From the IMG/VR virus record IMGVR_UViG_2737471826_000010, positions 1 to 35,432 of that record: a DNA stretch of 35,432 bases; one strand, given 5' to 3'. Positions within the stretch are counted from its first letter, which is position 1; every line of letters starts with the position of its first letter. The translations under genes were made by a program, and so were the position numbers. The notes under the pieces were generated by a model. The model was not told the DNA's origin. It worked only from the letters and a program-made list of their open reading frames with translations, and searched no databases. The DNA is from a virus. Taxonomy: Duplodnaviria; Heunggongvirae; Uroviricota; Caudoviricetes. Positions 6,517-34,142 of this stretch are shown here, one piece after another.

Positions 6517-6857
6517 TGGACTATTCACAGTTAAGTGATTTTGAAATTAACAGAATGGTAGGAGACATAATTTTTAAAGGCCTTTGGGCATGTAAACCGG
6601 AAACATCAGGGAATAACACCAACAAATGGTATTACGGAAATACTGATACAACTTTTGAGCCATTAAACCATTTACCTGACTACTGCAATGATCCTAGCGC
6701 CTCATGGCCGATTATTGAGAAACACAGGATTTCTATCTTAGACCAGTTAACTGAATGGTGTGTTGATGCAAAAGGCGTAAGACCAATATTTGATACCAGA
6801 CCTCTCCGCGCCGCCATGATTGTATTTCTCATGATGCAGGAAAATCAGAATGGCTAA
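6513..6857 (+). CDS. hypothetical phage protein (114 aa; possibly DUF2591-type)
   Basis: ORF translationally coupled to both neighbours; family assignment from memory only. Confidence 0.4.
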
Positions 6858-7188
6858 ATCAGCAGCAGAGCGCAAAGCCGCTCAGAGAGCCAGACAAGCT
6901 GCATCTGGTGTGCGTAAGCTGGAAATTGTGCTTGATGCTCAGGAAATTGAAATGCTGGAGCGTAACTGTGCCACGCGTCGCCCCGGGCGTGCGCCTTACG
7001 AATTTGGTGAGTATATAGCGTTACTGATCCGCCAGGATGATGCACGCGTGCGCGGGCGTATAAAATCGATCAGCAGAAAACGTTGCGGTAAGTGCGGCGA
7101 GAGAGTTCCAGTTAATTCATGCCCGTGTAATGGTGACTCGCAATGCTGGGTGACTAAAGGCTGGCATGAAACGAAATTAATAGTGTGA
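6850..7188 (+). CDS. putative DNA-binding regulator: ribbon-helix-helix-like N-terminus plus Cys4 zinc ribbon
   Basis: 112 aa; basic N-terminus, [18 protein letters not shown], then [21 protein letters not shown]; last early gene before terminator and terS; stop codon lies inside the GTGACATGTCAC palindrome. Confidence 0.45.
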
Positions 7189-7196
7189 CATGTCAC
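7185..7196. repeat. 12-bp perfect palindrome GTGACATGTCAC (copy 1)
   Basis: Exact palindrome containing the stop codon of gene 6850..7188; terminator 42 bp downstream. Confidence 0.8.
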
Positions 7197-9375: not shown

Positions 9376-9425
9376 TCCGCTGGTGGGGATAATGTCGTTG
9401 ATATCCTCTGATGAGGATAAAACAA

Positions 9426-9446
9426 AGCCAGCTCATCGGCTGGCTG
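9426..9446 (-). terminator. terminator hairpin after moron gene
   Basis: Stem AGCCAGC/GCTGGCT; on the minus strand followed by TTGTTTT; palindrome copy 2 lies between it and the gene stop. Confidence 0.5.
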
Positions 9447-9449
9447 TTT

Positions 9450-9461
9450 GTGACATGTCAC
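9450..9461. repeat. 12-bp perfect palindrome GTGACATGTCAC (copy 2)
   Basis: Exact copy between stop of 9466..9840 and its terminator. Confidence 0.8.
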
Positions 9462-19184: not shown

Positions 19185-19729
19185 TGTGCGATCCGGTTAT
19201 TGCTGGTGGCGCAATGCTCGCCATGAGTGGCATTCAGGCATACACCCAGTACCAACAGGGAAAGTATGCCTCGAAGGTTGCAGAAGCGAACGCAGATATA
19301 GCCACAGCTCAGGCAAATGATGCAATAAACAGAGGTAACGCTGAAGCTGAGCAACGGCGCAGAGAGACCCGACAGCGGCTTGGTACACAGGCGGCGACAA
19401 TGGGGGCTACCGGCGCTGATTTATCTACAGGTAACGCGCTGGATATATTTGGCGACACTGCCCAGTTTGGCGCTCTTGATTCTCTGACGACGGTGAATAA
19501 CGCGCAACGCGAGGCTTACGGTTATCAGGTTCAGGCTGCCAACTATAAAGCAGAAGCCAGTTCAGCCCGTAAACAGGGGAATGTGGGAGCAGCAACAACA
19601 TTGCTCACTGCGCCTCTGAAGGCATACGGTGCGTACCAGATGTTTGGTGGGACGTGGAGTCCGTTTACTCAAAGCACCCCTGCGCCAATCGGAGCAGCAG
19701 CAGGAACCAGATTACCCGGAGGATTATAA
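19184..19729 (+). CDS. internal virion protein (gp14-like)
   Basis: 181 aa starting MC followed by hydrophobic segment, Ala/Gln-rich; position matches podovirus internal core protein. Confidence 0.4.
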   Translation: MCDPVIAGGAMLAMSGIQAYTQYQQGKYASKVAEANADIATAQANDAINRGNAEAEQRRRETRQRLGTQAATMGATGADLSTGNALDIFGDTAQFGALDSLTTVNNAQREAYGYQVQAANYKAEASSARKQGNVGAATTLLTAPLKAYGAYQMFGGTWSPFTQSTPAPIGAAAGTRLPGGL

Positions 19730-22242
19730 TGCCAGTCGTACCAACAGTATCCGGACGTCAGGTTGAGAGCCGTGGAGTTCAGTCAGCAGGCTTGCAGACG
19801 TTTTCTCAGCCAGGTATTGGTGATGCTTTTGTTCGGGCAGGGGCAGAGGCAATTGATGTTTTGGGGCAGGCAAAACAGCGTGCCAATATTGCCTTGGCTC
19901 AGGAGGCATCTCTTAACCTCAGTCAGATAAGCAGTGATTTGCTGAATAATCCTGAAACAGGATTGCTGAACCTGAAAGGGAAAAATGCTATTGGAAAAGG
20001 CCATGAGTATACGCAGCAGTTTGATGCTCAGGTCGAACAATTGGCTATGTCGCTGCCGGATGAACAGGCTCGTAATGCTTTCATGCAGCAGGCGCAGCAG
20101 CAGCGCATTCAGTTCACTACGCAGGCCGGGCGGCACGAGATAGGGCAAATAAATGCCTACGAAGAAGGCCAGTTTCAGGCTACGCTGCTGAACAATGGTA
20201 AAAATGCCGCAGCATTGTATGGCGACAACGCCGCATACGTATTGGCTAATAAGCAAACTTTCCAGCAAATTGAGGATTACGGCATTGCACATGGCTGGAG
20301 TGACGAGCAAATCCAGGCCAAGAAAATCGAGTTTAAAGAAGCAACAGCAAAAGCAACTGCTCAAAATGCTATTGGAGCAAACTATCTTCAGGTAAGACGG
20401 CAAAACGGCGAGTTAAGCGATACTGCTGCTGGATCTCGCCGTGCTGTAGCAGATAGTGGCTCTTCCGATCGTACCCGCGGTATACGCAACAATAACCCCG
20501 GCAATCTTGAATACAGCAAAACTAATCCGTGGGTTGGGCAGACTGGTGATGATGGTCGCTTTGCCAAATTCGAAACCCCTGAACACGGTATTCGTGCATT
20601 AGGGCGGAACCTGATGTCGTATCAGCGGCAGGGTATTGATACCGTCAGCGAGATAATTAATCGCTGGGCACCGCCTACTGATAAAAATGACACTATGTCG
20701 TATATCAAAGCAGTGTGCGAACAACTTGGCGTTTCTGCTGATGAGCCTCTCGATGCATCAAATCCTGATACCCTGAAGGCGCTTTGTGCAGCCATTATCC
20801 ATCATGAAAACGGTAGCCAGCCATACAGTGATCAGCAGTTAACTGCAGGTGTTAGTGCTGCGCTGGGGCTTTCTCAGCTACCGACAAAAAATAAACGTTA
20901 TACCGGTGTAGCCTGGTTCGATGCTTTAAGTGAATCAGATCAGGCCAGCGTGTTGCGACAGACTGATGCACTAGCCAGACAACAGCAGGCTGAATATAAA
21001 ACGATGCTCGACAGCCGGGTTCGCGATGCGACGGCTGCGTATATGCGTGGCGTTGAATTTCCTAACCCACCTGGTGAGGATGATTTTATTGCAGCTTATG
21101 GAGTCAGAGAAGGAAACCTGCGATATACCGAGTTTAAGAATACGCAGATCGCCGGACAGTATATAGGCTCTTTCCGCAACATGCCGACAAGCAGCATTAC
21201 AGCATATGTTGAGCAATTACGCCCGGATACTGGTGATACAGGGGAGGGGTATGCGGCACGCGCAGCTCTTTATGACAACGTTGTTTCGGCTGCAAATCAG
21301 GTGATAAAGCAGCGGCAGTCGGATCCTGTGCAGTTCTCTCTTGCCTCCGGACAGGCAAAGCCTATCGACATGAGCAATAAGGATAACTTTGGACAGAGCG
21401 TTGCCTTGCGTGCCGCTCAGGTCAGTGACCTTGCTAAGTCATATGGCACTCCACTGACGTTCTTTTCCAAAGACGAGGCCAATCAGATCGGTGTTTTCTT
21501 TCGTGATGCGCCAGTTTCCCAACAGGCAGCATATCTCGATACCATCAGGCAGAGCACTGGTGGTGGGCAGGTGTATATGTCAGCACTACAGCAGATCAGT
21601 GCCAACGCTCCATCTGCTGCCGTTGCCGGGATACTGATGGATAAGCCTGGTGGTATTTTGGCAGAAAAAAACTGGTTTAATCCTGATGTTTCCGTGTCTC
21701 CTGAAACCGCAGCGCAGACAATTCTTGCTGGTGCGGCGGCTCGTAAAGGTACTGATGACGCGAAAGGTATTCCGATGCCTAAAGATGCTGATCTCCGCCT
21801 TGAGTTTTCTGACATGGTGAAGGATGCATTTGCTGGTGATGCTCAGGGGGCATCAATGGCATACGAGATCGCAAAGGACTATTACGCTGGTGTGATGGCG
21901 AAAAAAGGCGTGGTATCAGGCGAAATTGACAATGATATCTGGAAACAGGCTGTTAACGTAGCTACAGGTGGTGTGCATGACTATAACGGAATGGGGAATG
22001 TTCTTTTGCCGTGGGGAATGTCTGCAGAGCAATTCGATAAGCAGGTTAATCAGGCTTGGAATGAACAAGTTGTCGGCACAGGGATAAAAACACCGCTTGG
22101 TCAGTATGGTTTGCAAAGTTACGGCGATAGTCAGTACCTGGTGAAACTTGGTACTGGTTATCTGCTAAAAGATGATGGTTCTCCCGTTGTTCTTGATCTG
22201 ACACAGAAGCGTCAGAGATTCTCCGGAGATATTCCGCAATGA
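19729..22242 (+). CDS. internal virion/ejection protein (838 aa)
   Basis: Start ATG 19729 (TAATG overlap, GGAGG RBS) rather than the track start at 19654. Confidence 0.5.
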   Translation: MPVVPTVSGRQVESRGVQSAGLQTFSQPGIGDAFVRAGAEAIDVLGQAKQRANIALAQEASLNLSQISSDLLNNPETGLLNLKGKNAIGKGHEYTQQFDAQVEQLAMSLPDEQARNAFMQQAQQQRIQFTTQAGRHEIGQINAYEEGQFQATLLNNGKNAAALYGDNAAYVLANKQTFQQIEDYGIAHGWSDEQIQAKKIEFKEATAKATAQNAIGANYLQVRRQNGELSDTAAGSRRAVADSGSSDRTRGIRNNNPGNLEYSKTNPWVGQTGDDGRFAKFETPEHGIRALGRNLMSYQRQGIDTVSEIINRWAPPTDKNDTMSYIKAVCEQLGVSADEPLDASNPDTLKALCAAIIHHENGSQPYSDQQLTAGVSAALGLSQLPTKNKRYTGVAWFDALSESDQASVLRQTDALARQQQAEYKTMLDSRVRDATAAYMRGVEFPNPPGEDDFIAAYGVREGNLRYTEFKNTQIAGQYIGSFRNMPTSSITAYVEQLRPDTGDTGEGYAARAALYDNVVSAANQVIKQRQSDPVQFSLASGQAKPIDMSNKDNFGQSVALRAAQVSDLAKSYGTPLTFFSKDEANQIGVFFRDAPVSQQAAYLDTIRQSTGGGQVYMSALQQISANAPSAAVAGILMDKPGGILAEKNWFNPDVSVSPETAAQTILAGAAARKGTDDAKGIPMPKDADLRLEFSDMVKDAFAGDAQGASMAYEIAKDYYAGVMAKKGVVSGEIDNDIWKQAVNVATGGVHDYNGMGNVLLPWGMSAEQFDKQVNQAWNEQVVGTGIKTPLGQYGLQSYGDSQYLVKLGTGYLLKDDGSPVVLDLTQKRQRFSGDIPQ

Positions 22243-24041
22243 GTTACTTTGGCCTTAATCCAGTAAACCAGAATCAGCAGCTTGACGAAGCAGCATCAAA
22301 TCCAGCTGGCTTTAACAGCGATGTTGGTTTTTTCGACAATGCTGTAGGAGCGGCATTGTCTGGTTTGTACTCCGGGCTGGTGGCAAAGCCAGATCAGTTG
22401 CTCTGGGCAGGGATGGATAAAATCGTATCCCCGATTGCTCAGTTTGTTAACGAAAACACCTCGCTCAATGACACTTCAGTTTCATACATTGCCGAGCAGA
22501 GAAAACTAGCAGAGCAGCAGGTTAAGCGGCTGACGCCTGATGCCGCGACAACCGGAACCGCCGGGCAGGTTCTTTATGGGTTGTTCGATATGGGCGGGCA
22601 GGCTGTTGTCGGTACAACGCTCGGTGGTCCGGTCGGAGGTGCAGCGGCGGTAACTTCGCTACAGGGTTTTTCTGAGTTTGAACGGCTGACAGCACAGGGT
22701 GTTGATTTTAGGACGGCGCAGGAAGCAGGATTAGTGCAGGGTATTACTGCTGGTGCCGGAACACTGATCCCTATGAGCCTCGGGTTACGTGCTGGTGGTG
22801 CACTGGCGGAAGGTGTGGCGGCCCAGCTTGCGCGGACGGGTGAAAGTTCAGTGCGACGCGCCGCAGCAACAGCAGTACGTGCAACGCCAGATATTGCCTA
22901 TGCCGCAGGTACAAATATTGCGTTCGGTATGGCACAGCGTGGGCTTACTGCAAAAACGCTTCGTGATGGTGGCTATAGCGAAATGGCTAACCAGTATGAT
23001 GTGTTGGATCGACAGGCAATTGCTATTGATGCTGTTCTTGGGGTGGCGTTTGGTGGTGTCGGCAGATTTATTAACTCTCGCGGCGAGTCTACAAGCGCAC
23101 CAAATTTTTCACCAGTTGATGTTGATGCTGCACTGGCGGCGAATGCCGCTCATCATGCTGAAATTGATATTGCGCCCGGCGTGCCGATCAACGTGCTTTC
23201 GCGCAATTCTCACATTCAGGCTCTGCGAAAAGCTATGTCTGATGTTAGCCAGGGGAGACCTGTAGATGTTGCCAGCATTGTTGAGTCTGCATCTTTCAGT
23301 GAAATTCCTGGGCGCAAGAGTCTGCTGTCTCAGGCAGTTAATGAGGCTCTGTCATCTGTAGATGATGGAGTAACGGCGCGCGCTATAGAAAATCGGTTGC
23401 TTGAAGAACAGGCCGCGCAGCTTTTGCCGCGTGGCGATAGACAGGTTTACCAGTCTGAAATCGCTAATAGCCAACGAATTATTGAAAATCTCACTGAACA
23501 GCGCGCACAAATTCTTGCAGAAGATCCAACCGGTAGCGGTAAATCTTTGTCTCGTGCTCGATCAGATAAACAGGTCAGACTTCGCGATATTGACCAACGA
23601 ATCCGGCAGGCACAAGAACGCCTGGAATTTTCCCGTAACGCGTTGGCACCGCATGAGCCTGGCGGTCAGTTTTTTGAAGCTCGAGCAGAACTGGCACGGA
23701 GACAGCAGGCTGAAAGTGAACTTAATGCTCAGGCTGTTTCATTCTATAAAACAGCAGAGGTCAGGACGCCAGACGAAGTAGCTCCTTTTGAGCCTGATAA
23801 AATATTGCAACAGGCAGAACAAAAAATGATGGCGGATCAGGCAGGAGATATTGATCTGCGCATAGCTGAAGACTCGCTGCTTGAATCACCTGACATGATA
23901 ATCACCGTGCTGGATGATGATGGTAATCCACAATCGCGCAGCGCGCGTGAAGTACTGGATGAAGCGAACAGGGAAAGTGAGCAGGCAATACAGGATTCCA
24001 GCCTGTTTGATGTCGCTGTGGCGTGTTTCTTGAGAGGTTAA
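22239..24041 (+). CDS. internal virion/ejection protein (600 aa)
   Basis: Large Ala/Gly-rich ORF coupled to previous gene. Confidence 0.5.
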   Translation: MSYFGLNPVNQNQQLDEAASNPAGFNSDVGFFDNAVGAALSGLYSGLVAKPDQLLWAGMDKIVSPIAQFVNENTSLNDTSVSYIAEQRKLAEQQVKRLTPDAATTGTAGQVLYGLFDMGGQAVVGTTLGGPVGGAAAVTSLQGFSEFERLTAQGVDFRTAQEAGLVQGITAGAGTLIPMSLGLRAGGALAEGVAAQLARTGESSVRRAAATAVRATPDIAYAAGTNIAFGMAQRGLTAKTLRDGGYSEMANQYDVLDRQAIAIDAVLGVAFGGVGRFINSRGESTSAPNFSPVDVDAALAANAAHHAEIDIAPGVPINVLSRNSHIQALRKAMSDVSQGRPVDVASIVESASFSEIPGRKSLLSQAVNEALSSVDDGVTARAIENRLLEEQAAQLLPRGDRQVYQSEIANSQRIIENLTEQRAQILAEDPTGSGKSLSRARSDKQVRLRDIDQRIRQAQERLEFSRNALAPHEPGGQFFEARAELARRQQAESELNAQAVSFYKTAEVRTPDEVAPFEPDKILQQAEQKMMADQAGDIDLRIAEDSLLESPDMIITVLDDDGNPQSRSAREVLDEANRESEQAIQDSSLFDVAVACFLRG

Positions 24042-24046
24042 ATTAA

Positions 24047-26521
24047 ATGAGACAGGAATGTATACAAGCGGTCCAGCAGGCGGCGCAGCGCACGTTAACG
24101 GCGCGAGAAATACAGAACATTGAAGACCGCATTTATCGAAATATGCGCTCCATTGCTCGTGATGACCCGATGTCGTGGCGACAACTTTCCGAATCAGAGC
24201 GGCTGTATCGTGCAGCACAATTGGCATCTGAAGAATTACAGCGAGAAGCGGCATTAAAGAAACGTCGTGTGGCCCTCACTATAGCCGCACGTCAGAGATT
24301 GGATAAATTTATCAATAGCTATCAAGGGGCTGATGGGAAACTTGGCGCTCTTAACCGTACTATTGCTTTTAATGCAGACGGTAAATCGAATTTCCTCTCT
24401 GTTGAATCCAGAACAAAAGCCACCCGTGATTATGCATTGAGTCAATTGCAGGAGGCATTCGAAGCAGTTGATCCTCGCTTTTTTGGTCTGTTTGAAGATG
24501 AAGCTGGCGTACGTGACCTGGTATATGAAATGCGGGGGCAAAATACTGGCAATGCTAAAGCAAGAAAAGGTGCTAAGGCGTGGAGAGAAGTGACAGAGCT
24601 ACTGCGCCGCCGGTTTAATGATGCTGGTGGGGACATTGGCTATCTCGAAAACTGGGGGATCCCTCAACATCATTCTATGGAAAAGGTTGGGGCGGTATCA
24701 AAGGATAAGTGGGTTAGCGATGTTATAGGTAAGCTGGATCGCAAATATTATACCCGAGCCGATGGACAACTGATGAACGATGCCGAGTTGTCTGAATTTC
24801 TTGGAGAGGCTTATAACACGATCGCTACTGGTGGGCTGAATAAGCTTACTGATACCGGAATGCGAATTTCCGGCGCACGTGCTAACCGTGGTAATGCATC
24901 ACGACAGATACATTTCAAAGATGCAGATTCCTATCTGCAATATCAGCAACTTTATGGCGATCGCTCTCTATGGGAAATCATGGTCGGTCACCTGGAAGGT
25001 ATCAGTAAAGATATTGCACTGGTGGAAACATATGGCCCAAACCCCGATCATGTTTTCCGCTCCCTTCTTGATCAGGTTAAGGCAGAAACGGCAACAGCTA
25101 ACCCGAGTAAAACCGGTAGCGTCGAGCGTCTGGCGAACAAAACAGAGAACTTGTACAACTTTATTTCCGGAAAAACACAGCCTGTAGCGAATCCGCACAT
25201 CGCGCGATGGTCTGACAATATCCGCAACTGGCTGGTTGCCAGCAGACTCGGATCCGCGTTGCTGTCATCGTTCTCTGATCTTGGAACCATGTATCTGTCT
25301 GCGAAGGTTACCAACCTTCCAATGAACCAGTTATTTCGCAACCAGCTTGAAGCTATGGACCCAACGAACCGTACAGAACTTGCGCGGGCGCGCCGCGCTG
25401 GCCTGGCGATGGAATCTCTACTTGGCAGCGTTAACCGCTGGGCGATGGATAATATGGGGCCGTCTGTGTCTCGTTGGGCGGCAACGGCGGTAATGCGTGC
25501 CAGTGGGCTTACAGCATGGTCAGATGCGCACAAGCGCGCCTATGGCGTAACCATGATGGGAAGCCTGGGAGAAGTAGTGTCACGGACACCAGACCTTCGT
25601 AGCCTCGATGACTCTGATTTTCGTATCCTGAAAAGCAAAGGGATTACTGACACAGACTGGAGCGTATGGAAGCTGGCGCAACAGGAGGACTGGGGGAACG
25701 GTAATAATACGATGCTGACACCGGAAAGCATTATGCGTATCCCTGATTCAGCAGTTAAACATCTTGGTGAGCCTGAGCGCGTGAAATTTGAGGCAATGCG
25801 TAAACTGCTCGGTGCCGTAACTGAAGAAGTTGATATGGCTGTTATTACACCGGGCGCACGTGAACAGATGTTCGTAGGGTCTGGTCTTCAGCGTGGAACA
25901 TGGAAAGGTGAATTAACGAGAAGTGTTTTCCTGTTTAAATCGTTCCCTATCTCGGTAGTTATGCGTCACTGGCATAGAGCTATGGGGATGCCGTCTGCTG
26001 GTGGGCGTGCAGCATATATAGCAACGTTTTTAGCAAGCACAACCATGCTTGGTGCTCTTTCCATGCAGATTACTGATCTTATTAATGGGAGAAATCCAAA
26101 AGAAATGACCGGTGACAACATGGTTAAATTCTGGATAAATGCATTTTTAAAAGGTGGTGGTGCAGGGTTGTATGGTGATTTTCTTTTCTCTGACCACACC
26201 AGGTACGGAAGCGGCGCGTTGGCGTCGATGCTTGGCCCGGTAGCTGGTCTGGTTGATGACGTAGTGAAGATTGCTCAGGGCATACCGTTAAATGCTGTGG
26301 AAGGGAAGAATGAGCAGACTGGTGGTGATCTGGTTAAGCTGGGGAAAGGTCTGATGCCAGGTGCGAATCTCTGGTACTTAAAGGCGGCTCTCGATCACAT
26401 GATCTTTAACCAGATGCAGGAGTATTTTTCACCAGGCTATTTGCGTAAAATGGAGCAACGTTCAAAGAAAGAGTTTAACCAGACATACTGGTGGCGACCT
26501 CAGGATGTCACTCCGCAATAA
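24047..26521 (+). CDS. internal virion/ejection protein (824 aa)
   Basis: Large ORF with GAGAGG RBS; last gene of the morphogenesis run. Confidence 0.5.
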   Translation: MRQECIQAVQQAAQRTLTAREIQNIEDRIYRNMRSIARDDPMSWRQLSESERLYRAAQLASEELQREAALKKRRVALTIAARQRLDKFINSYQGADGKLGALNRTIAFNADGKSNFLSVESRTKATRDYALSQLQEAFEAVDPRFFGLFEDEAGVRDLVYEMRGQNTGNAKARKGAKAWREVTELLRRRFNDAGGDIGYLENWGIPQHHSMEKVGAVSKDKWVSDVIGKLDRKYYTRADGQLMNDAELSEFLGEAYNTIATGGLNKLTDTGMRISGARANRGNASRQIHFKDADSYLQYQQLYGDRSLWEIMVGHLEGISKDIALVETYGPNPDHVFRSLLDQVKAETATANPSKTGSVERLANKTENLYNFISGKTQPVANPHIARWSDNIRNWLVASRLGSALLSSFSDLGTMYLSAKVTNLPMNQLFRNQLEAMDPTNRTELARARRAGLAMESLLGSVNRWAMDNMGPSVSRWAATAVMRASGLTAWSDAHKRAYGVTMMGSLGEVVSRTPDLRSLDDSDFRILKSKGITDTDWSVWKLAQQEDWGNGNNTMLTPESIMRIPDSAVKHLGEPERVKFEAMRKLLGAVTEEVDMAVITPGAREQMFVGSGLQRGTWKGELTRSVFLFKSFPISVVMRHWHRAMGMPSAGGRAAYIATFLASTTMLGALSMQITDLINGRNPKEMTGDNMVKFWINAFLKGGGAGLYGDFLFSDHTRYGSGALASMLGPVAGLVDDVVKIAQGIPLNAVEGKNEQTGGDLVKLGKGLMPGANLWYLKAALDHMIFNQMQEYFSPGYLRKMEQRSKKEFNQTYWWRPQDVTPQ

Positions 26522-26530
26522 GGAACAACA

Positions 26531-26944
26531 ATGAAGGAATTATTGCTGTTATCGGTATTTTTGATATCAGCTTGCTCGACATCCTATGATGTTTATGACG
26601 GTGTTGATAAGGCATATTGCGACAAAGTTAAAATGGATTTTTCTCTTGCCAAGACGGCGAAGGATAGTTGTATTGATCACTACGTCAAGACTTATACCAA
26701 GCCAGCCTCATCGGCATCTGATATTGCTGAAGGTGCTGTGTTTGAGTGTAACAAGGTGATATCCATCGCAGCGAGTTCTTCATACGATGCTGCTGTATGT
26801 GCAATGGCTGAAAGAAACGGCATGTCAGTGCAAAAAATTAATAGCATGATAAGCAGTAATGACGAAGCCAAAATAAGAACTGATATCAGCTCGGTGAAAA
26901 AAGATGCCATGAACAGAGTTGTAAAATATCAGTCATCTTTATAA
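26531..26944 (+). CDS. lipoprotein moron (possible superinfection exclusion)
   Basis: Signal peptide with lipobox LISAC; visibly AT-rich; followed by palindrome copy 3 and a terminator. Confidence 0.55.
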   Translation: MKELLLLSVFLISACSTSYDVYDGVDKAYCDKVKMDFSLAKTAKDSCIDHYVKTYTKPASSASDIAEGAVFECNKVISIAASSSYDAAVCAMAERNGMSVQKINSMISSNDEAKIRTDISSVKKDAMNRVVKYQSSL

Positions 26945-26947
26945 GTC

Positions 26948-26959
26948 GTGACATGTCAC
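26948..26959. repeat. 12-bp perfect palindrome GTGACATGTCAC (copy 3)
   Basis: Exact copy 3 bp after the lipoprotein stop and 1 bp before the terminator stem. Confidence 0.8.
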
Positions 26960-26960
26960 A

Positions 26961-26984
26961 GGCCGCTTTCGCGGCCTTGTTTTT
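26961..26984. terminator. terminator between convergent genes
   Basis: Stem GGCCGC/GCGGCC, loop TTTC, then TTGTTTTT on plus strand. Confidence 0.6.
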
Positions 26985-27144
26985 AACGAATGCCACCGCC
27001 GCCTGGGCGGGAATCCGCAGAACGCCCACCGCAGCGGGAGCCGTCAGCAGCAGTGTCGCTGTCGTGCTGACAACGACCAGCAAAGGCCTGAGTTGAAGCT
27101 ACCAGAGACAATAAAACGAACAGTGCAGCAAATGCTTTTTTCAT
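26983..27144 (-). CDS. small secreted peptide (53 aa)
   Basis: Internal ATG at 27144 gives MKKAFAALFVLLSLVASTQAFA signal peptide followed by a 31-aa Gly/Arg-rich mature region with two Cys; weak RBS. Confidence 0.3.
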   Translation of the reverse strand: MKKAFAALFVLLSLVASTQAFAGRCQHDSDTAADGSRCGGRSADSRPGGGGIR

Positions 27145-27225
27145 TGTGAAATTTCCATCTATAAGCCACCTCAATGTGGCGTCAATGAGTGTAGCACTGA
27201 CTTTTGTTTCGTCCATAAAAAACTA

Positions 27226-27738
27226 CTATGCAGGCTTTTTGGATTTGTACGAATAATCCCACGGATAAACATTTCTACTAAGTGGAGCTGTATTCGTTCG
27301 TTCATGAAATAATTTTGTGAAATTCAATACGGAATCCATCCAAACTTTTGCGTTAGCTTTGGTGTGTGCGGGCGGGTCCCAATAAGCTAGTAAGGCTGCA
27401 TCTCTTATTTCATTGACTGCATATATGAGATATGCGTTACTGGTTGGTTTTGGCCTGTAATTTCCTTGTTCATCAATCAATCCGTATGACCACTCATCCC
27501 AACACTGTTCAGTACATGAGTATGAATATGATGCATATTCACCAATATTGACATGAACCTTTCTGAGATGGAAACCTAATACTTCGTCTGGTCTTTCAAA
27601 AAGAGTATCTTTTCCCAGATCAGGATGATGACCATGACGCCAGTGTTGTTTAAAAGCATCTTTTAGCGAAATCAGAAAGTCATCAGTTTTAAACTCACCA
27701 GTAGGTATAACCTTCCCGCTATACTCACTCAAAAACAT
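27226..27738 (-). CDS. YafO-like toxin (putative ribosome-dependent mRNA interferase)
   Basis: 170 aa; PDLGKDTLFE, FHLRKVHVNIG and AYLIYAV...ALLAYWDPPAHTKA align with remembered E. coli YafO blocks (PDTFGRDALYD, ERVAHIHLANE, AHLVYCQ...WLLIAILKPEPHKLA); strong RBS AAGGAAGAGGAA; AT-rich. Confidence 0.45.
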   Translation of the reverse strand: MFLSEYSGKVIPTGEFKTDDFLISLKDAFKQHWRHGHHPDLGKDTLFERPDEVLGFHLRKVHVNIGEYASYSYSCTEQCWDEWSYGLIDEQGNYRPKPTSNAYLIYAVNEIRDAALLAYWDPPAHTKANAKVWMDSVLNFTKLFHERTNTAPLSRNVYPWDYSYKSKKPA

Positions 27739-28051
27739 CGAATTCCTCTTCCTTCATATGCGTTTCTAATGAGTTAAGCTGGCGGAAAGATATCTCTTTT
27801 GATTCTGCAGATGAGAGCTTTTTTATCCGCTTTATATTCTTTGTGATAGGAATAGACATTGTATGCACATCAGCGGATGCTCTTGGCTTTGTGCTGATAA
27901 AAATATGGCGCAATGCCGCATTTTCACTATTGAACGAGCCAATAGCTGATTTACGTGCTACAACCTTACCAGTAAAAATACGACTCTTGCTACGCTTTGC
28001 ATGAGTTCCGCTTCTTACCGGACCTCTCATCACGAATCCAAGTTTTGTCAT
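27725..28051 (-). CDS. putative antitoxin/partner of the YafO-like toxin
   Basis: 108 aa, basic N-terminus, acidic C-terminus EEEFDVFE; GGAGA RBS; overlaps the toxin gene by 14 nt; not obviously YafN/Phd-like. Confidence 0.4.
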   Translation of the reverse strand: MTKLGFVMRGPVRSGTHAKRSKSRIFTGKVVARKSAIGSFNSENAALRHIFISTKPRASADVHTMSIPITKNIKRIKKLSSAESKEISFRQLNSLETHMKEEEFDVFE

Positions 28052-28093
28052 CTTTAATCTCCGGTAAGTTACAGGTATAAAATAAAAACAGGT

Positions 28094-28108
28094 TTACCTT
28101 TAAGGTAA
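28094..28108. promoter_or_regulatory. operator site TTACC-TTTAA-GGTAA upstream of toxin-antitoxin-like operon
   Basis: Perfect palindrome copy 43 bp upstream of start codon at 28051. Confidence 0.55.
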
Positions 28109-28180
28109 TAGTACGCTATTCACCCCCAGTCTGCAATCTGTACAGAATTATTTAAAGGCACATCCCTGTGCCGCCGCCAG

Positions 28181-28891
28181 TCAGAAGAACCCTGCCTTGT
28201 CGTTGATGTATTCCGCGTGTGTCTGGATATCACGCAGGCATTTGCTCACACCGACGATGTAGCAGAACATGGTGGTCAGTTCCGCCGCCGCGCCCGATAC
28301 GTCGTGCCCGTCGTCCTGTAACTGGTTCAGCAGATTCATCAGCAGTGAGTTCTCCGTCAGGCCGAGAACACCAGACGGCGAGTGAATCAGGCTGCGGTAG
28401 CCGGGCTTCAGTGGGGCGCTGTAGGTTTTGTTCTCTATCTTCATTGCCTGCATCACTGCTGATGCTGTGGCGTTGGCTACCTGGTCGGCAACCATCTTTA
28501 TGCGTTCTTCCTGCGGGAGCGAGTTTTTAATGTAACTTCCGGTGCGGCGGATCTGAGGAAGTACTTCGCCTGTAACCCATTTGCGAAAGCGGTAGGGGAT
28601 AGTGCCTGGTGTCACCGCATCGCGGCAGCGGAGGATCAGTGTGTAGAGGCCTGACTCGGAGATGATGTTGATCTCTTTTACTCGGCTGTCAAAAATTGCA
28701 CGATGTTCATGCCCTATGTTGAACATAGACCTTTCATCATCATCCAGTTTTTCAAGTGCTTGGGTGACGTTTTGGATACGCAGCGCACTACAAACGTCTT
28801 GGGCTACAAACCATGGTTGGCCATCGATAATGATGGAACGGATAGGGTTAACAGATTCAAATTTGAAGATGGCAGTTTGAGCATTAGCCAT
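28181..28891 (-). CDS. antirepressor with Bro-N domain
   Basis: N-terminal WFVAQDVCSAL...SGLYTLILRCRD...FRKWVTGEVLPQIRRTG is a Bro-N-type signature; start set to ATG 28891 with GGAGA RBS; C-terminal domain paralogous to gene 29207..29464. Confidence 0.65.
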   Translation of the reverse strand: MANAQTAIFKFESVNPIRSIIIDGQPWFVAQDVCSALRIQNVTQALEKLDDDERSMFNIGHEHRAIFDSRVKEINIISESGLYTLILRCRDAVTPGTIPYRFRKWVTGEVLPQIRRTGSYIKNSLPQEERIKMVADQVANATASAVMQAMKIENKTYSAPLKPGYRSLIHSPSGVLGLTENSLLMNLLNQLQDDGHDVSGAAAELTTMFCYIVGVSKCLRDIQTHAEYINDKAGFF

Positions 28892-29048
28892 GGTGGTTAT
28901 CTCCACTTAGTGATTTTAATCACCACCGCAACGCCAATTACTGGTGGTGAACTGGACAAGGTTGGCGTACCGGCCTAAGTGGTACCGGCGTCCTTTCGGA
29001 CCCCTGCCCAGCCCACCATAATTCGGATATAGCTGTGCTTAACGCATA

Positions 29049-29659: not shown

Positions 29660-31849
29660 ATGACGGTCTCAACCGAAGTTGACCACAACGAATACACCGG
29701 TAACGGCGTTACGACATCATTTCCGTATACCTTCCGTATTTTCAAAAAAACCGACCTGGTTGTTCAGGTGTCTGACCTGAACGGGAACGTAACAGAATTG
29801 GTTCTGGATACCGGTTATAAGGTAACTGGAGCGGGCACTTATAGTGGCGGTGAAGTGGTTCTCCCGTCGCCGCTTGCTGCTGGCTGGCGAATTACGATAG
29901 AGCGTGTGCTTGATGTGGTGCAGGAGACTGATCTTCGCAATCAGGGAAAATTTTTCCCCGAAGTTCATGAAGATGCATTTGACTACCTGACGATGCTGAT
30001 CCAGCGATGTTTTGGGTGGTTCAGACGTGCATTGATGAAACCATCTTTGCTTGCAAAATATTACGATGCAAAGCAAAACAAAATTTCTAACCTTGCAGAT
30101 CCATCATTTGAGCAGGACGCTGTAAATAATCGCTCAATGCGTAATTATGTCGATGCTGCAATCGCCGGGGTTGTTGGTGGTTTTGGTTGGTTTATACCGT
30201 CAGGAAGCGAGGCAAGACAACGAACATTTCAAAGCAAAATGAGGGATATAATTTCTCCTTGTGATTACGAAGATAATATTTTTATGATTAAGGAGTTGAT
30301 ATCCAAAGGCAAAAATGCCGCTGTTTTTAACTCATATTATACTTTTGTTATTACTGTTGGCGAATGGGGTGATTACCCTACACTCAAAGATGCAATCATT
30401 GCAGCCCAGTCAATGAGACCTATGTGGGATGGTGGTAATGCTTTCTGCGAAATAAGAATTAAGACCGGGCATATTATCAACTATCAAATTGAATTCAGTT
30501 CAGGTGTTGATTTGTCTTGGATTAAAATAACATCAGAAGACTCAGTGGTTTTCTCTGACACTCGTTTGTTTACTAAAATCGTTAGAACGTATTACGAATA
30601 CAAGTATTTATTTTACATTTGCGATGCAGCAAAAAGTCCTGTATTTGCTATTCAGATCGAAGAAAATAGAGATGATAGCGATGTTTGTGCATTTATTGTA
30701 ACTCAAAAAGCTGAACTTAATTTCTATCCGTATTCAGGTGCTCGAAAGTTCTACGTTGGAATTCATGGTAGTTTTGGTGCAAAAATTAGTGCATATCATA
30801 CCGGATGTGCTCCTGATGAGGAAAGTGTTGCTGCATATATGCCAGAAGGGTATTACGTATGTGATTTTTCTTATAGCAGATACTCTTCCCTGCAACTGGT
30901 AAATAATGTCAAGGCATCAATGCCTGTAAGCAAGTTTGAACGGTGCACAGAGAGTACGGTTGCGTCAGTTAATTGTATTTATAATGTTAAAGCAGATTTT
31001 CAGGGGTCAAGTGCAAGCTATTGTTATATAGGATGGAATGTAAGAGATGGTTCAAATGTTAATATACGCGACCATAAAACTATACATTGCTCATATCGTG
31101 GATTAACCTGCATTCATACAGCATATGTTGATGCAAGACGACATGACGTTGAAGAAAGTGATGCAGAAACAAGTGGTAAAGTCCTTGAACCAAATATTGA
31201 AAAAGGTTTTTATGGATGTGCACTTGGTGTGCGTATTGATGGTGCGGGTTGCGTTGATGTTGCTGGTAATGATATGCGCAATTGTGGAACAGCCGTTAAT
31301 GCAGACACTGGTGCTGTTATTTCAGGAAAGGCTGTAGATATCTCAGGGGCTGAGCTGGGATTTGATTGCCATGCAGGAGCATCTGTTAATTTTCCAAGGC
31401 TATGGGGTACAGATATAAAAAAATTAATGCACCTCCAAGATGGTGTAAGGTTTAACTCTAATATTTGTCATGTATTTGGTGCAAATCCCACAAAAGATAT
31501 TAGATGGATTGATGTAGAGAGATCTGAAGCTTCTTTTATGAATGCAACGCTGGATGCAGATTCAGGATTTATTGCCGACTGTGGTAGTAGGATAACCATT
31601 GAAGGAAGTAAAGTTAAAAACCAAACAATAAGAAGTTTTTTTGGATCATATGTGGCTATAAATAATACTGTTGCTGACAGAACTTATTCAGATATAGCCG
31701 ATGTTCCGCAGTTGACTATTAGTGGAGGATCTTTTATTTCTGCTACAGGATATTCTAATTCTGACTCCAGCCCTCTGAGGTTGAGCACAACACGAAATAC
31801 ACTTGGCGTTGGAGGAGCCATATTTTCAACCAATGGGGAAGTTTCATGA
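29660..31849 (+). CDS. tailspike / tail fiber with T7-type N-terminal adaptor and divergent receptor-binding domain
   Basis: N-terminus EYTGNGVTTSFPYTFRIF...GWRITIERV resembles podovirus tail-fiber head-binding domain; C-terminal ~550 aa Cys/Gly/Asn-rich; DNA becomes AT-rich after ~30200. Confidence 0.7.
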   Translation: MTVSTEVDHNEYTGNGVTTSFPYTFRIFKKTDLVVQVSDLNGNVTELVLDTGYKVTGAGTYSGGEVVLPSPLAAGWRITIERVLDVVQETDLRNQGKFFPEVHEDAFDYLTMLIQRCFGWFRRALMKPSLLAKYYDAKQNKISNLADPSFEQDAVNNRSMRNYVDAAIAGVVGGFGWFIPSGSEARQRTFQSKMRDIISPCDYEDNIFMIKELISKGKNAAVFNSYYTFVITVGEWGDYPTLKDAIIAAQSMRPMWDGGNAFCEIRIKTGHIINYQIEFSSGVDLSWIKITSEDSVVFSDTRLFTKIVRTYYEYKYLFYICDAAKSPVFAIQIEENRDDSDVCAFIVTQKAELNFYPYSGARKFYVGIHGSFGAKISAYHTGCAPDEESVAAYMPEGYYVCDFSYSRYSSLQLVNNVKASMPVSKFERCTESTVASVNCIYNVKADFQGSSASYCYIGWNVRDGSNVNIRDHKTIHCSYRGLTCIHTAYVDARRHDVEESDAETSGKVLEPNIEKGFYGCALGVRIDGAGCVDVAGNDMRNCGTAVNADTGAVISGKAVDISGAELGFDCHAGASVNFPRLWGTDIKKLMHLQDGVRFNSNICHVFGANPTKDIRWIDVERSEASFMNATLDADSGFIADCGSRITIEGSKVKNQTIRSFFGSYVAINNTVADRTYSDIADVPQLTISGGSFISATGYSNSDSSPLRLSTTRNTLGVGGAIFSTNGEVS

Positions 31850-32142: not shown

Positions 32143-32344
32143 CTGCTACCGCGCCATTAAATGGTGCGGTATTCAACCTGCTCTTCACTGTTTGTTTCTT
32201 CAGAGTCATGTAAAAGGTGAGCTTTATTCTCGGCATGAAAAACAGGGAATTGACGATGTTAAAGTAACAAAAAACCATAAATGGTTTATTATGCGTAATG
32301 CTTTACTGTTCAGGAGGTTGTTATGCATATAAACGGTGGAAAAC

Positions 32345-32749
32345 ATGTCAGCTCAACTAACCAGTGAAACTTTAAATCAGTGGCTTAGCATGAGTTCTCT
32401 GGCGGCGGTGATAGCAGGAGTTCCTCCTGAGGTTGCTTTGGGTGCTTTGGCTGGAGCGGTAATTTTTGTTACCTCTGCAGTAGAGTACCCCATCCGTCGC
32501 CGGGTGCTCCTGTCGATGCTCAGCTTTCTTTGCGGCCTTCTCTTTTACAAACCAGCAGCATCAATTCTTATCGGCATAGCCAGCCTGATCCCTACCATCA
32601 CGCAGGACTCTTTTGAAAAAGGGATTGTTTTCTCTGCAGGCGCATTCGTGTCAGCAATTGTCGCTGTGCGTATTGGTATATGGCTCTATCACCGTTCCGA
32701 TAATCCACGCGAGTTAATTCCGGGGAGAAAAGACGATGGTAACGCATGA
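32345..32749 (+). CDS. holin-like membrane protein
   Basis: Multiple hydrophobic helices; directly upstream of endolysin; start set to ATG 32345. Confidence 0.4.
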   Translation: MSAQLTSETLNQWLSMSSLAAVIAGVPPEVALGALAGAVIFVTSAVEYPIRRRVLLSMLSFLCGLLFYKPAASILIGIASLIPTITQDSFEKGIVFSAGAFVSAIVAVRIGIWLYHRSDNPRELIPGRKDDGNA

Positions 32750-33044
32750 GTTTTTTTTGCTTATCACCAATGCAGTTATTTGCACTGGCATAGCAATTCG
32801 CGTTGTCACATTCCGGCGTAACGGCTCTCAACACCGAAGGTGGGGAGGATGGCTTGCTTATTTCCTGATTGTTGCTGCGGCCAGTATTCCTGTTCGTGTC
32901 GCCTATGCAATCTGGTTACGTACGCCAATGGCTGTGGATTTATCTGAGGTCATTATCAACGCTGTCATGCTAGCTGCGGTTATTAAAACGCGCGGTAACG
33001 TCGTTCAAATTTTCAAAGTATCGAGGTCTAAACATGGAGATTAA
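32736..33044 (+). CDS. holin/antiholin-like membrane protein
   Basis: 102 aa with hydrophobic helices; overlaps previous gene and endolysin start. Confidence 0.4.
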
Positions 33045-33663
33045 ACAATTCCAGCGAGCTGCTGGTATCAGCGAGGCACTGGCCGCACGCTGGTTCTCGC
33101 ATATAACTTCTGCGATGAAAGAGTTTGGTATCAGCAAACCAGAAGATCAGGCTATGTTTATTGCTCAGGTCGGGCATGAGTCTGGAGGCTTCACCCGGTT
33201 GCAGGAGAATTTCAACTACAGCGTCAGCGGACTGGCTAACTTTGTTCGGGCTGGGCGTCTCACTCAGGGACAGGCCAACGCATTGGGGCGACGTGCAGGC
33301 GAACCACCATTGCCACTTGAGCGCCAGAGAGCGATTGCCAATCTGGTGTACAGCAAACGCATGGGGAACAATGCCCCTGGTGATGGCTGGAACTACCGTG
33401 GGCGCGGGCTTATCCAGGTTACCGGTTTGAATAACTATCGTGACTGTGGAAACGGTCTTAAGGTTGACCTGCTGGAGAGTCCTGAACTGCTGGCGCAGGA
33501 CGAATACGCGGCTCGTAGCGCGGCGTGGTTCTTTGCCAGCAAAGGATGCATGAAGTATACCGGCGATATTGCACGTGTAACTCTGATTATCAATGGTGGC
33601 CGGAACGGCATCGACGACCGGCGCGCGCGATACATCAATGCCAGTAAGGTGCTGGCGGTATGA
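33034..33663 (+). CDS. endolysin, glycoside hydrolase family 19 type
   Basis: [12 protein letters not shown] and [15 protein letters not shown] motifs characteristic of GH19 lysozymes. Confidence 0.8.
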
Positions 33664-34142
33664 TCTGGGCATTCGTAAAAGCATACCGGAAACAGTTGAT
33701 TATCATGGCGGTGCTTGCTGTTCTGGTCATATCAGGAGTTGTTGCCTGGAGTGTACACGGCAGTCGTCAGTACGACGCCGGGTATGCGCAGGCGAAAGAA
33801 GACCGCAAAACCGAAGATGAGAGAATTCGTCAGCACTACGAACAGGAGAAAGCGATCAATGAACGTGAAGCGCAGCAGAGGATCGACCAGGCGCGCAATG
33901 ATGCTCTTGATGCTGCCGCTCGCGCTGGCCGGTTGCAGCAACAGCTCGTTGCCATCCGTGAGCAGCTCAGGCAGTATAACGCCATTGTCGGCGCTGGGAC
34001 GTCAGCCGCAGACACCGGAGTTTTGCTTGCCGACGTGCTCAGTAAATCTCTCGAGAGAAACAGACAACTGGCAGAGTATGCTGACCGGGCAGCCGAAGCC
34101 GGAAGAGTCTGTGAAAAACAGTACGACACCCTGACCAGATAG
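33660..34142 (+). CDS. Rz: i-spanin (Rz-like)
   Basis: N-terminal transmembrane segment then coiled-coil periplasmic domain; follows endolysin with ATGA overlap; contains embedded +1-frame lipoprotein ORF. Confidence 0.7.
33859..34134 (+). CDS. Rz1: o-spanin (Rz1-like), embedded in Rz
   Basis: +1-frame ORF entirely within Rz; [26 protein letters not shown] lipoprotein signal (lipobox LAGC), Pro-rich mature region. Confidence 0.6.
   Translation: MNVKRSRGSTRRAMMLLMLPLALAGCSNSSLPSVSSSGSITPLSALGRQPQTPEFCLPTCSVNLSRETDNWQSMLTGQPKPEESVKNSTTP

Follow-up and report, generated by a model that had tools for sequence, protein, structure and literature searches.

In the IMG/VR record IMGVR_UViG_2737471826_000010, analyzed here over its full 35,432 nucleotides (nt) and hereafter called the window, a gene for a predicted lipoprotein of 137 amino acids (aa) and, on the opposite strand, a gene for a predicted secreted peptide of 53 aa converge in the variable region that follows the late operon. 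Sequence comparisons make it very probable that these are two genuine coding accessory cassettes, which happen to abut in a phage of the Uetakevirus type. The first-pass annotation of the window had located both open reading frames (ORFs) and described their features correctly, and its view of both as envelope-targeted accessory genes agrees with the predictions reported below. It had also regarded the convergent pair as one AT-rich moron, a view that the distribution of the two genes contradicts.

Independent distribution of the two genes

Among 5426 complete Escherichia coli genomes, the lipoprotein gene was present in 22 and the peptide gene, together with its 78-nt leader, in 431, with both genes found together in no more than 15, one of which is E. 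coli R18 (NZ_CP186506). At 80 IMG/VR loci encoding a 100% identical peptide, the 700-bp flanks formed at least 10 unrelated clusters on each side. Similarity starts abruptly at position 27222 in 72 of 85 loci, while on the other side of the peptide gene it continues through a hairpin and a palindrome. Based on these counts, the flank clusters and the break at 27222, the lipoprotein and peptide genes are, as judged from sequence, two independently assorting accessory cassettes that abut by chance. Each shows two of the properties of a moron, namely presence/absence variation, seen in the variable flanks and slot alleles, and a deviating guanine-plus-cytosine (GC) content, with values of 0.391 (lipoprotein gene) and 0.562 (peptide gene) versus 0.487 for the window. 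Of the two genes, only that of the lipoprotein therefore fits the description as AT-rich.

A variable slot behind the late operon

The region of the window matches the Escherichia phages HEMP4, phiv142-3, TL-2011b, ZX5 and phiV10, with which it shares its gene order, and the classified relatives phiv142-3 and phiV10 belong to Uetakevirus. By this similarity, the window is an epsilon15/phiV10-like (Uetakevirus) prophage or phage and not a P22-like one. Its variable cargo region lies between the ejection/virion protein genes of the late operon and the leftward ant (Bro-N)/tail-fiber region, and the last large gene of the late operon encodes an 824-aa gp17-like protein, whose equivalents are p20 of phiV10 and Orf13 of phiv142-3.

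To survey what follows this gene, the C terminus of the gp17-like gene was located in 50 fetched loci and the next ORF was read. The junction alignment showed a backbone (...CCGCAA TAA GGA) conserved across loci, after which each allele diverges, so that the conserved backbone stops at TAAGGA, the cassette begins there and the recombination boundary falls right after TAA GGA. The slot starts 8 to 9 nt past the gp17-like stop codon in all close relatives, and junctions equivalent to window positions 26522 to 26530 were read in loci L001, L003, L013, L060, L091, L092 and L103. At least five nonhomologous types of allele occupy the slot across the 50 loci, every one of them a small envelope protein: a 57-aa protein with two transmembrane (TM) segments (22 loci), the 137-aa lipoprotein (17 loci), a 41-aa TM protein (5 loci), a 46/48-aa two-TM protein of the phiV10 gp21 type (5 loci) and, in distant relatives, TM proteins of 91/113 aa. 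The phiV10 gp21 (46 aa, "putative integral membrane protein") thus shares with the lipoprotein the slot, the TAA GGA junction and the nature of a small envelope protein, although gp21, a two-TM peptide, and the other slot alleles are not homologous to it. The lipoprotein allele keeps its slot position in Citrobacter/Enterobacter-type prophages and, at 55% identity, in Cedecea; in both, an antirepressor gene comes immediately after it and the peptide gene is absent. Taken together, these comparisons indicate that the lipoprotein gene is one allele of a dedicated slot in Uetakevirus-like prophages.

The lipoprotein and its expression

The signal peptide and lipobox assignments of both proteins were made by inspection and conservation. 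The lipoprotein begins with MKELLLLSVFLISAC and carries the lipobox L-I-S-A-C15, with Ser at position +2; MKELLLLSVFL-ISAC15 fits an n-region, an h-region and a lipobox of the form [LVI][ASTVI][GAS]C, as in a lipoprotein. The lipobox is kept in all nine homologues (as LSGC in Cedecea), and its Cys is invariant across them down to 55% identity, as are C30, C47, C73 and C90, the four conserved Cys of the 123-aa mature protein. Between the window and a Citrobacter-type allele there are 33 synonymous and 8 nonsynonymous differences (proportions of synonymous and nonsynonymous differences, pS and pN, of 0.38 and 0.025, respectively), and the resulting ratio of nonsynonymous to synonymous substitution rates (dN/dS) of 0.047 indicates strong purifying selection. 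The AlphaFold2 (AF2) model is all-alpha, with a predicted local distance difference test (pLDDT) score of 86.8 and helices at residues 24 to 55, 62 to 72, 74 to 96 and 100 to 136. Since C30 and C47 are 17 residues apart on the first long helix and C73 and C90 are also 17 apart on the next one, the model suggests that the bundle is probably held by two disulfide staples, C30-C90 and C47-C73, assuming antiparallel packing of the two long helices.

The family, phrog_8691 in PHROGs (unknown function), is tiny: a search of 5.8 billion proteins recovered 17 clusters, whose members all come from Enterobacterales (E. coli, Enterobacter, Citrobacter and Cedecea), and a profile query for distant relatives returned nothing beyond the same 17 clusters. 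The lipoprotein was absent from the INPHARED phages (50,697 phage records), a PDB sequence search gave only a signal-peptide match, to TraN, and no structural relative was found in structure searches. An o-spanin role was also considered and rejected, as the lysis cassette, with its DUF2514 protein, lies elsewhere (32336 to 34142).

Since the lipoprotein gene starts only 9 nt past the stop codon of the 824-aa late gene and the promoter scan revealed no promoter-like site upstream of it, the simplest reading makes it the final cistron of the late operon, cotranscribed with it and not expressed in the lysogen like P22 sieA.

The small peptide gene, its leader and its contexts

The peptide precursor begins MKKAFAALFVLLSLVASTQAFA|GR..., with an n-h-c layout and A-x-A before the predicted cut. 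Its parts, MKK / AFAALFVLLSLVA / STQAFA|G, correspond to the positive n-region, the hydrophobic h-region and the small residues at -3/-1 of a Sec type I signal peptide. In the homologue alignment, conservation reaches at least 90% for the -1 Ala and the +1 Gly, whereas the h-region varies, the pattern of a cleavable signal peptide. The predicted mature peptide has 31 aa (3.06 kDa; isoelectric point, 8.1) and is rich in Gly (8) and Arg (5), with two Cys, as the first-pass annotation had described. Ten divergent homologues from Escherichia, Klebsiella, Buttiauxella, Cronobacter, Pectobacterium, Dickeya, Salmonella and metagenomes gave, for the mature region, a saturated pS of 0.74, a pN of 0.09 and a dN/dS of 0.03, and for the signal region a dN/dS of 0.27. 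Purifying selection on the mature region demonstrates that the small ORF is translated, a point on which the first-pass annotation had made its proposal depend. It is short and has a weak Shine-Dalgarno sequence and no consensus promoter, as might be expected of an untranslated chance ORF lying antisense to the terminator region. However, synonymous sites saturated alongside a near-invariant protein across genera, a conserved start codon, and 57 close and 375 remote homologous clusters refute this alternative, whose probability we regard as negligible. A longer, 77-aa reading from the ATG at 27216 was rejected as not conserved; in the homologues the upstream frame is closed after 1 to 21 codons, which leaves MKK as the start common to all. 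Over its full length, the 53-aa product matches phrog_14503 ("membrane associated protein"; E = 2.3e-40, residues 1 to 53 of 53), and it is 100% identical to AEW24557 of TL-2011b and Orf11 of phiv142-3, for which the NCBI name is "transmembrane anchored protein".

The leader contains a hairpin (27165 to 27180, minus strand; GCCAC-ATTGAG-GTGGC) located 20 to 35 nt upstream of the peptide start codon. The stems differ in sequence and are still complementary in Klebsiella (GCCAC/GTGGT), Pectobacterium (GCCGC/GCGG) and Cronobacter (ACCACC/GGTGGT), and likewise in Buttiauxella. This hairpin may be an element of the 5' untranslated region or a terminator of upstream genes.

The peptide gene was found in a wide range of contexts. 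In Cronobacter prophages it lies in the same slot, while in Pectobacterium and Dickeya phages it is a solitary gene that reads against both its neighbors, a MuF_C polyvalent-protein gene and the tail genes, and in another setting a lysis cassette and a RelB/YafQ pair precede it. A metagenomic contig of lambdoid type (L098, 2927 to 4153) has a peptide homologue as the third gene of the co-oriented series cI (Peptidase_S24)-Rap1a-peptide, which looks like a lysogen-expressed operon with Rap1a as a periplasmic protein resembling type VI secretion system immunity proteins. The gene also occurs on a 3.1-kb Salmonella contig, which carries a MobA/MobL relaxase gene as well, and in a complete 3.36-kb mobilizable Klebsiella plasmid (NZ_CP138754) it is the only listed nonmobilization gene, in a gene table that may be incomplete; this plasmid version has one promoter-like site upstream. 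Behind the gene, each foreign context has a hairpin of its own. Linkage to cI and presence on plasmids speak for the peptide gene being expressible outside lytic growth, and its position as the only listed cargo of a plasmid of about 3.4 kb suggests that it confers a benefit by itself.

In phiV10 (L003, 3280 to 3427), which lacks the peptide gene, similarity to the window nevertheless takes in roughly the last 20 nt of the peptide ORF (to 27003). This stretch, which adjoins the annotated 30-aa PhiV10p22, suggests that the gene was deleted and left a remnant.

Palindrome and terminator between the genes

The first-pass annotation had the two genes converging on one terminator. There is indeed one hairpin between them (26960 to 26977), with the stem AGGCCGC/GCGGCCT and the loop TTTC, followed by TGTTTTTAA, a T-run that overlaps the stop codon of the peptide gene on the opposite strand. 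The T-run occurs on the plus strand only, whereas on the peptide strand the hairpin is followed by GTGACATGTCAC, with no U's, and therefore the structure is a canonical terminator for the late/lipoprotein transcript only. A bidirectional terminator at this position was rejected, since the minus strand has no U-run. The phiV10 annotation lists this hairpin as a terminator, and because hairpin and palindrome both occur in phages without the peptide gene (phiV10 and lipoprotein-only loci), the terminator belongs to the phage backbone and not to the cassette.

The palindrome itself, a perfect 12-bp GTGACATGTCAC (extended form, TGTGACATGTCACG), recurs at this junction behind the slot: of the 108 loci fetched, 83 have it there, among them phiV10, prophages of Cronobacter and Buttiauxella, and lipoprotein-only loci. 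Its exact form has three copies in the window (7185 to 7196, 9450 to 9461 and 26948 to 26959), against about 0.002 expected in 35 kb. Two of them abut GC hairpins (9420 to 9448 and 26960 to 26977) at convergent gene junctions, and the third lies at the stop of the ORF at 6850 to 7188. The palindrome looks like a backbone regulatory or terminator-associated site that is part of neither cassette.

A widespread Cys-loop module

By sequence, the mature peptide represents a Cys-loop module, C-x12-C-G-x-R-[SA]-A-x-x-R-P-G-G, in free form, the same module being fused elsewhere in bacteria to the N or C terminus of larger proteins. When a profile built from 21 close homologues was run against 1.84 billion representative proteins, it recovered 375 clusters at E ≤ 1e-3. 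Of the 203 sequences examined, 196 had the full pattern C-x4-D-x-A-x-D-G-S-R-C-G-x-R-[SA]-A-x-x-R-P-G-G, and the Cys-to-Cys spacing was identical in 202 of 203 occurrences. The module occurs in 91 stand-alone proteins (≤80 aa), occupies the extreme C terminus in 48 and follows directly on an N-terminal signal or anchor in 33, with two or more copies in 7 proteins. A hydrophobic segment lies within 30 aa upstream of the module in 86 of the 91 small and 69 of 105 large proteins. Its carriers include a Mesorhizobium lipoprotein (module C-terminal), single-pass membrane proteins and one SH3-domain protein. The module is absent from Pfam and NCBIfam, a PDB sequence search with the peptide and module gave no matching chain, and a literature search by family name, accession numbers and motif strings found no paper.

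The gene of a module-bearing lipoprotein is chromosomal in Mesorhizobium (L005, 4572 to 6007), directly upstream of an ORF that reads by eye as thermonuclease-like, with a C-terminal Cys-rich domain. Two further larger module-bearing proteins had only hypothetical neighbors in their genomic contexts.

Possible roles and alternative explanations

If the features above are read as a whole, the lipoprotein would be made with the late operon, acylated at Cys15 and, because its +2 residue is Ser, sent to the outer membrane, with its helical bundle facing the periplasm. With its nonhomologous slot-mates it looks like one of a set of interchangeable envelope proteins of the late operon, whose most economical role would be to interfere with phage entry at the envelope, either through receptor masking or through a block of ejection, which would stop superinfection of the infected cell or spare the progeny from debris. 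The analogy is with the receptor-masking exclusion lipoproteins Llp of T5 and Cor of phi80/N15, with which the 137-aa protein shares small size, phage origin and a location, here predicted, at the outer membrane facing the periplasm. Unlike them, the 137-aa lipoprotein is predicted to be all-alpha, is twice the size and has no sequence match among the phage records searched. Interference with phage entry in the manner of Llp or Cor is put forward tentatively. It modifies the exclusion role first proposed, as the protein would be expressed late, in a phage that is not P22-like, and would not be paired with the peptide. Superinfection exclusion is a plausible candidate role, which computation neither supports nor refutes.

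The peptide, for its part, would be exported by Sec, cut after A-F-A and oxidized, closing an acidic loop of 12 residues that carries a flexible Gly/Arg tail. It would work alone in the periplasm, occupying the ligand of the tethered modules, be it peptidoglycan, a divalent cation or an envelope protein. Such competition for the ligand of membrane-tethered copies is a possibility we hold with reserve. The broader proposal, in which the module is an undescribed extracytoplasmic binding domain of Proteobacteria and the free copy of phages and plasmids a soluble decoy for the ligand of the tethered versions, is more speculative still. If true, a secreted copy of the module would alter an envelope property relevant to phage entry or interbacterial competition. 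For the explanation as a whole, with both cassettes and both mechanisms, we consider the balance to be slightly favorable.

Several observations weigh against these roles. Neither protein has a characterized homologue in Pfam, NCBIfam, PHROGs, INPHARED, PDB, structure searches or PADLOC. PADLOC gave no hit, and Pfam/NCBIfam searches with both proteins and their neighbors returned only subthreshold noise (Linker_histone, CC_3452 and HxsA3). The promoter scan found no sigma-70-like promoter upstream of either gene in the prophage versions, and outer-membrane sorting of the lipoprotein is read solely from the +2 rule. That the slot alleles are all membrane proteins is no proof of a shared function. 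The AF2 model of the mature peptide was of low confidence (pLDDT, 42 to 60) and was not used, so that its loop structure is an inference. Finally, the only exclusion demonstrated experimentally in the genus, that of phiV10, works through O-antigen O-acetylation by a different gene, an O-acetyltransferase (PMC11854483).

The original form of the exclusion idea would make the lipoprotein a prophage-expressed protein of the P22 sieA type, blocking DNA entry by related phages, and the convergent pair a single moron. In its favor, the product is predicted to be envelope-targeted, the low GC content suggests a foreign origin and the slot is hypervariable, as arms-race genes would be. The map position is also analogous, with the ejection-protein genes on one side and ant and the tail fiber or tailspike on the other. 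In P22, the gene for SieA, an exclusion protein of the inner membrane, lies between gene 16 and the immI/ant region. The first-pass annotation, which had recognized here the exclusion-gene position of P22-like phages, was therefore right about the layout and wrong about the phage, which is a Uetakevirus. Furthermore, the product is a lipoprotein and not a polytopic membrane protein, and neither it nor the peptide resembles SieA or any other described exclusion or defense family. Its gene lies immediately behind a late gene, to which it is apparently coupled, without a promoter-like site of its own, whereas sieA has its own lysogenic promoter, and the two genes of the pair assort independently. 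A sieA-type role consequently appears doubtful. As for the peptide, the small protein might not be secreted at all and might instead be a single-pass inner-membrane peptide, like the small regulatory peptides of the MgrB type. The database names cited above point in this direction, as does the fact that the module adjoins TM helices in larger relatives. Nevertheless, the -3/-1 A-x-A and the +1 Gly are conserved, while the hydrophobic core is free to change (dN/dS of 0.27 versus 0.03). The names of PHROG 14503 and of the NCBI family, which are descriptive, imply an anchor, whereas this conservation suggests a cleaved signal peptide, and a membrane-anchored product is accordingly improbable.

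Two further alternatives concern what the mature peptide would bind, and both are weaker than competition for the ligand of the tethered modules. It could be a periplasmic inhibitor of a muralytic enzyme, comparable to T4 Spackle or Ivy, with the SLT domain of an incoming ejection protein as a possible target. Like these, the peptide is predicted to be a small Sec-exported periplasmic product with a disulfide-constrained loop containing His and Asp, and its loop beginning C-Q-H-D resembles the CKPHDC loop of Ivy. In addition, an SLT domain is present in homologues of the upstream 862-aa gene (19654 to 22242), and one peptide homologue adjoins the Rap1a-type periplasmic immunity gene. However, the peptide has no detectable sequence or profile similarity to Spackle or Ivy; many members of the module family have Tyr, Cys or Ser in place of the His, and the module is common in nonphage rhizobial proteins, making such an inhibitor rather unlikely. 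Equally unlikely, in our view, is a loop for Ca2+ or other divalent cations of the Excalibur or EF-hand kind, with which the peptide would buffer or sense periplasmic metal. The acidic D-x-A-x-D-G-S inside the closed loop, which holds the most conserved residues, would suit this function, but its spacing differs from DxDxDG, and Pfam (E ≤ 0.1) detected neither Excalibur (PF05901) nor a metal-binding family in the peptide or in ten larger module proteins.

It is important to consider that envelope-directed accessory genes of prophages often decide which phages infect a lysogen and how it competes. Cargo genes for envelope proteins are an ordinary kind of prophage feature, of which the members described here are uncharacterized, and current concepts stay unchanged unless a phenotype emerges. 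Still, a slot that always holds a small envelope protein is a defined place to look for entry-blocking functions, and translation is certain for the 53-aa gene, which about 8% of the complete E. coli genomes carry. Its mature product defines a widespread short module missing from the domain databases searched.

Features of the region and neighboring genes

The positions of the features are given in Table 1.

Table 1. Features of the variable region and of the adjoining genes in the window
Feature	Position	Strand	Remarks
Large virion/ejection-type gene	19654-22242	+	Late operon
Large virion/ejection-type gene	22239-24041	+	Late operon
824-aa gp17-like virion structural protein (probable ejection/core protein)	24047-26521	+	phrog_684, "virion structural protein", E = 0, full length
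Junction, 9 nt, GGAACAACA	26522-26530	+	After TAA stop; Shine-Dalgarno sequence of the lipoprotein gene
Lipoprotein ORF, 137 aa	26531-26944	+	
Lipoprotein signal peptide and lipobox (predicted)	26531-26575	+	Cys15 at 26573-26575
Palindrome, 12 bp	26948-26959		
Intrinsic terminator of the late/lipoprotein transcript	26960-26985	+	Terminator scan, RNA folds of both strands
Small secreted-peptide ORF, 53 aa (predicted)	26983-27144	-	Stop codon at 26983-26985
Mature peptide, 31 aa (predicted)	26986-27078	-	
Cys-loop module, aa 25-49	26998-27072	-	
Peptide signal peptide (predicted)	27079-27144	-	
Leader, 78 nt	27145-27222	-	Travels with the peptide gene in E. coli
170-aa ORF	27226-27738	-	
108-aa ORF	27725-28051	-	phrog_5933
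Bro-N/Ant gene	28181-28906	-	
729-aa ORF	29660-31849	+	At the position of the tail fiber of relatives
Lysis cassette	32336-34142		Includes DUF2514 protein; downstream of the 729-aa ORF

An Rfam scan of positions 26300 to 28200 gave no credible RNA family. Beyond the leader, the 170-aa and 108-aa ORFs form an AT-rich pair (GC content of 0.39 and 0.40, respectively) with a 14-nt overlap. The 170-aa product scored 19.7 bits against the Pfam family YafO_toxin, below the cutoff of 25, and its homologues are named "YafO family toxin" by PGAP. This gene and the upstream 108-aa ORF may constitute a type II toxin-antitoxin pair.

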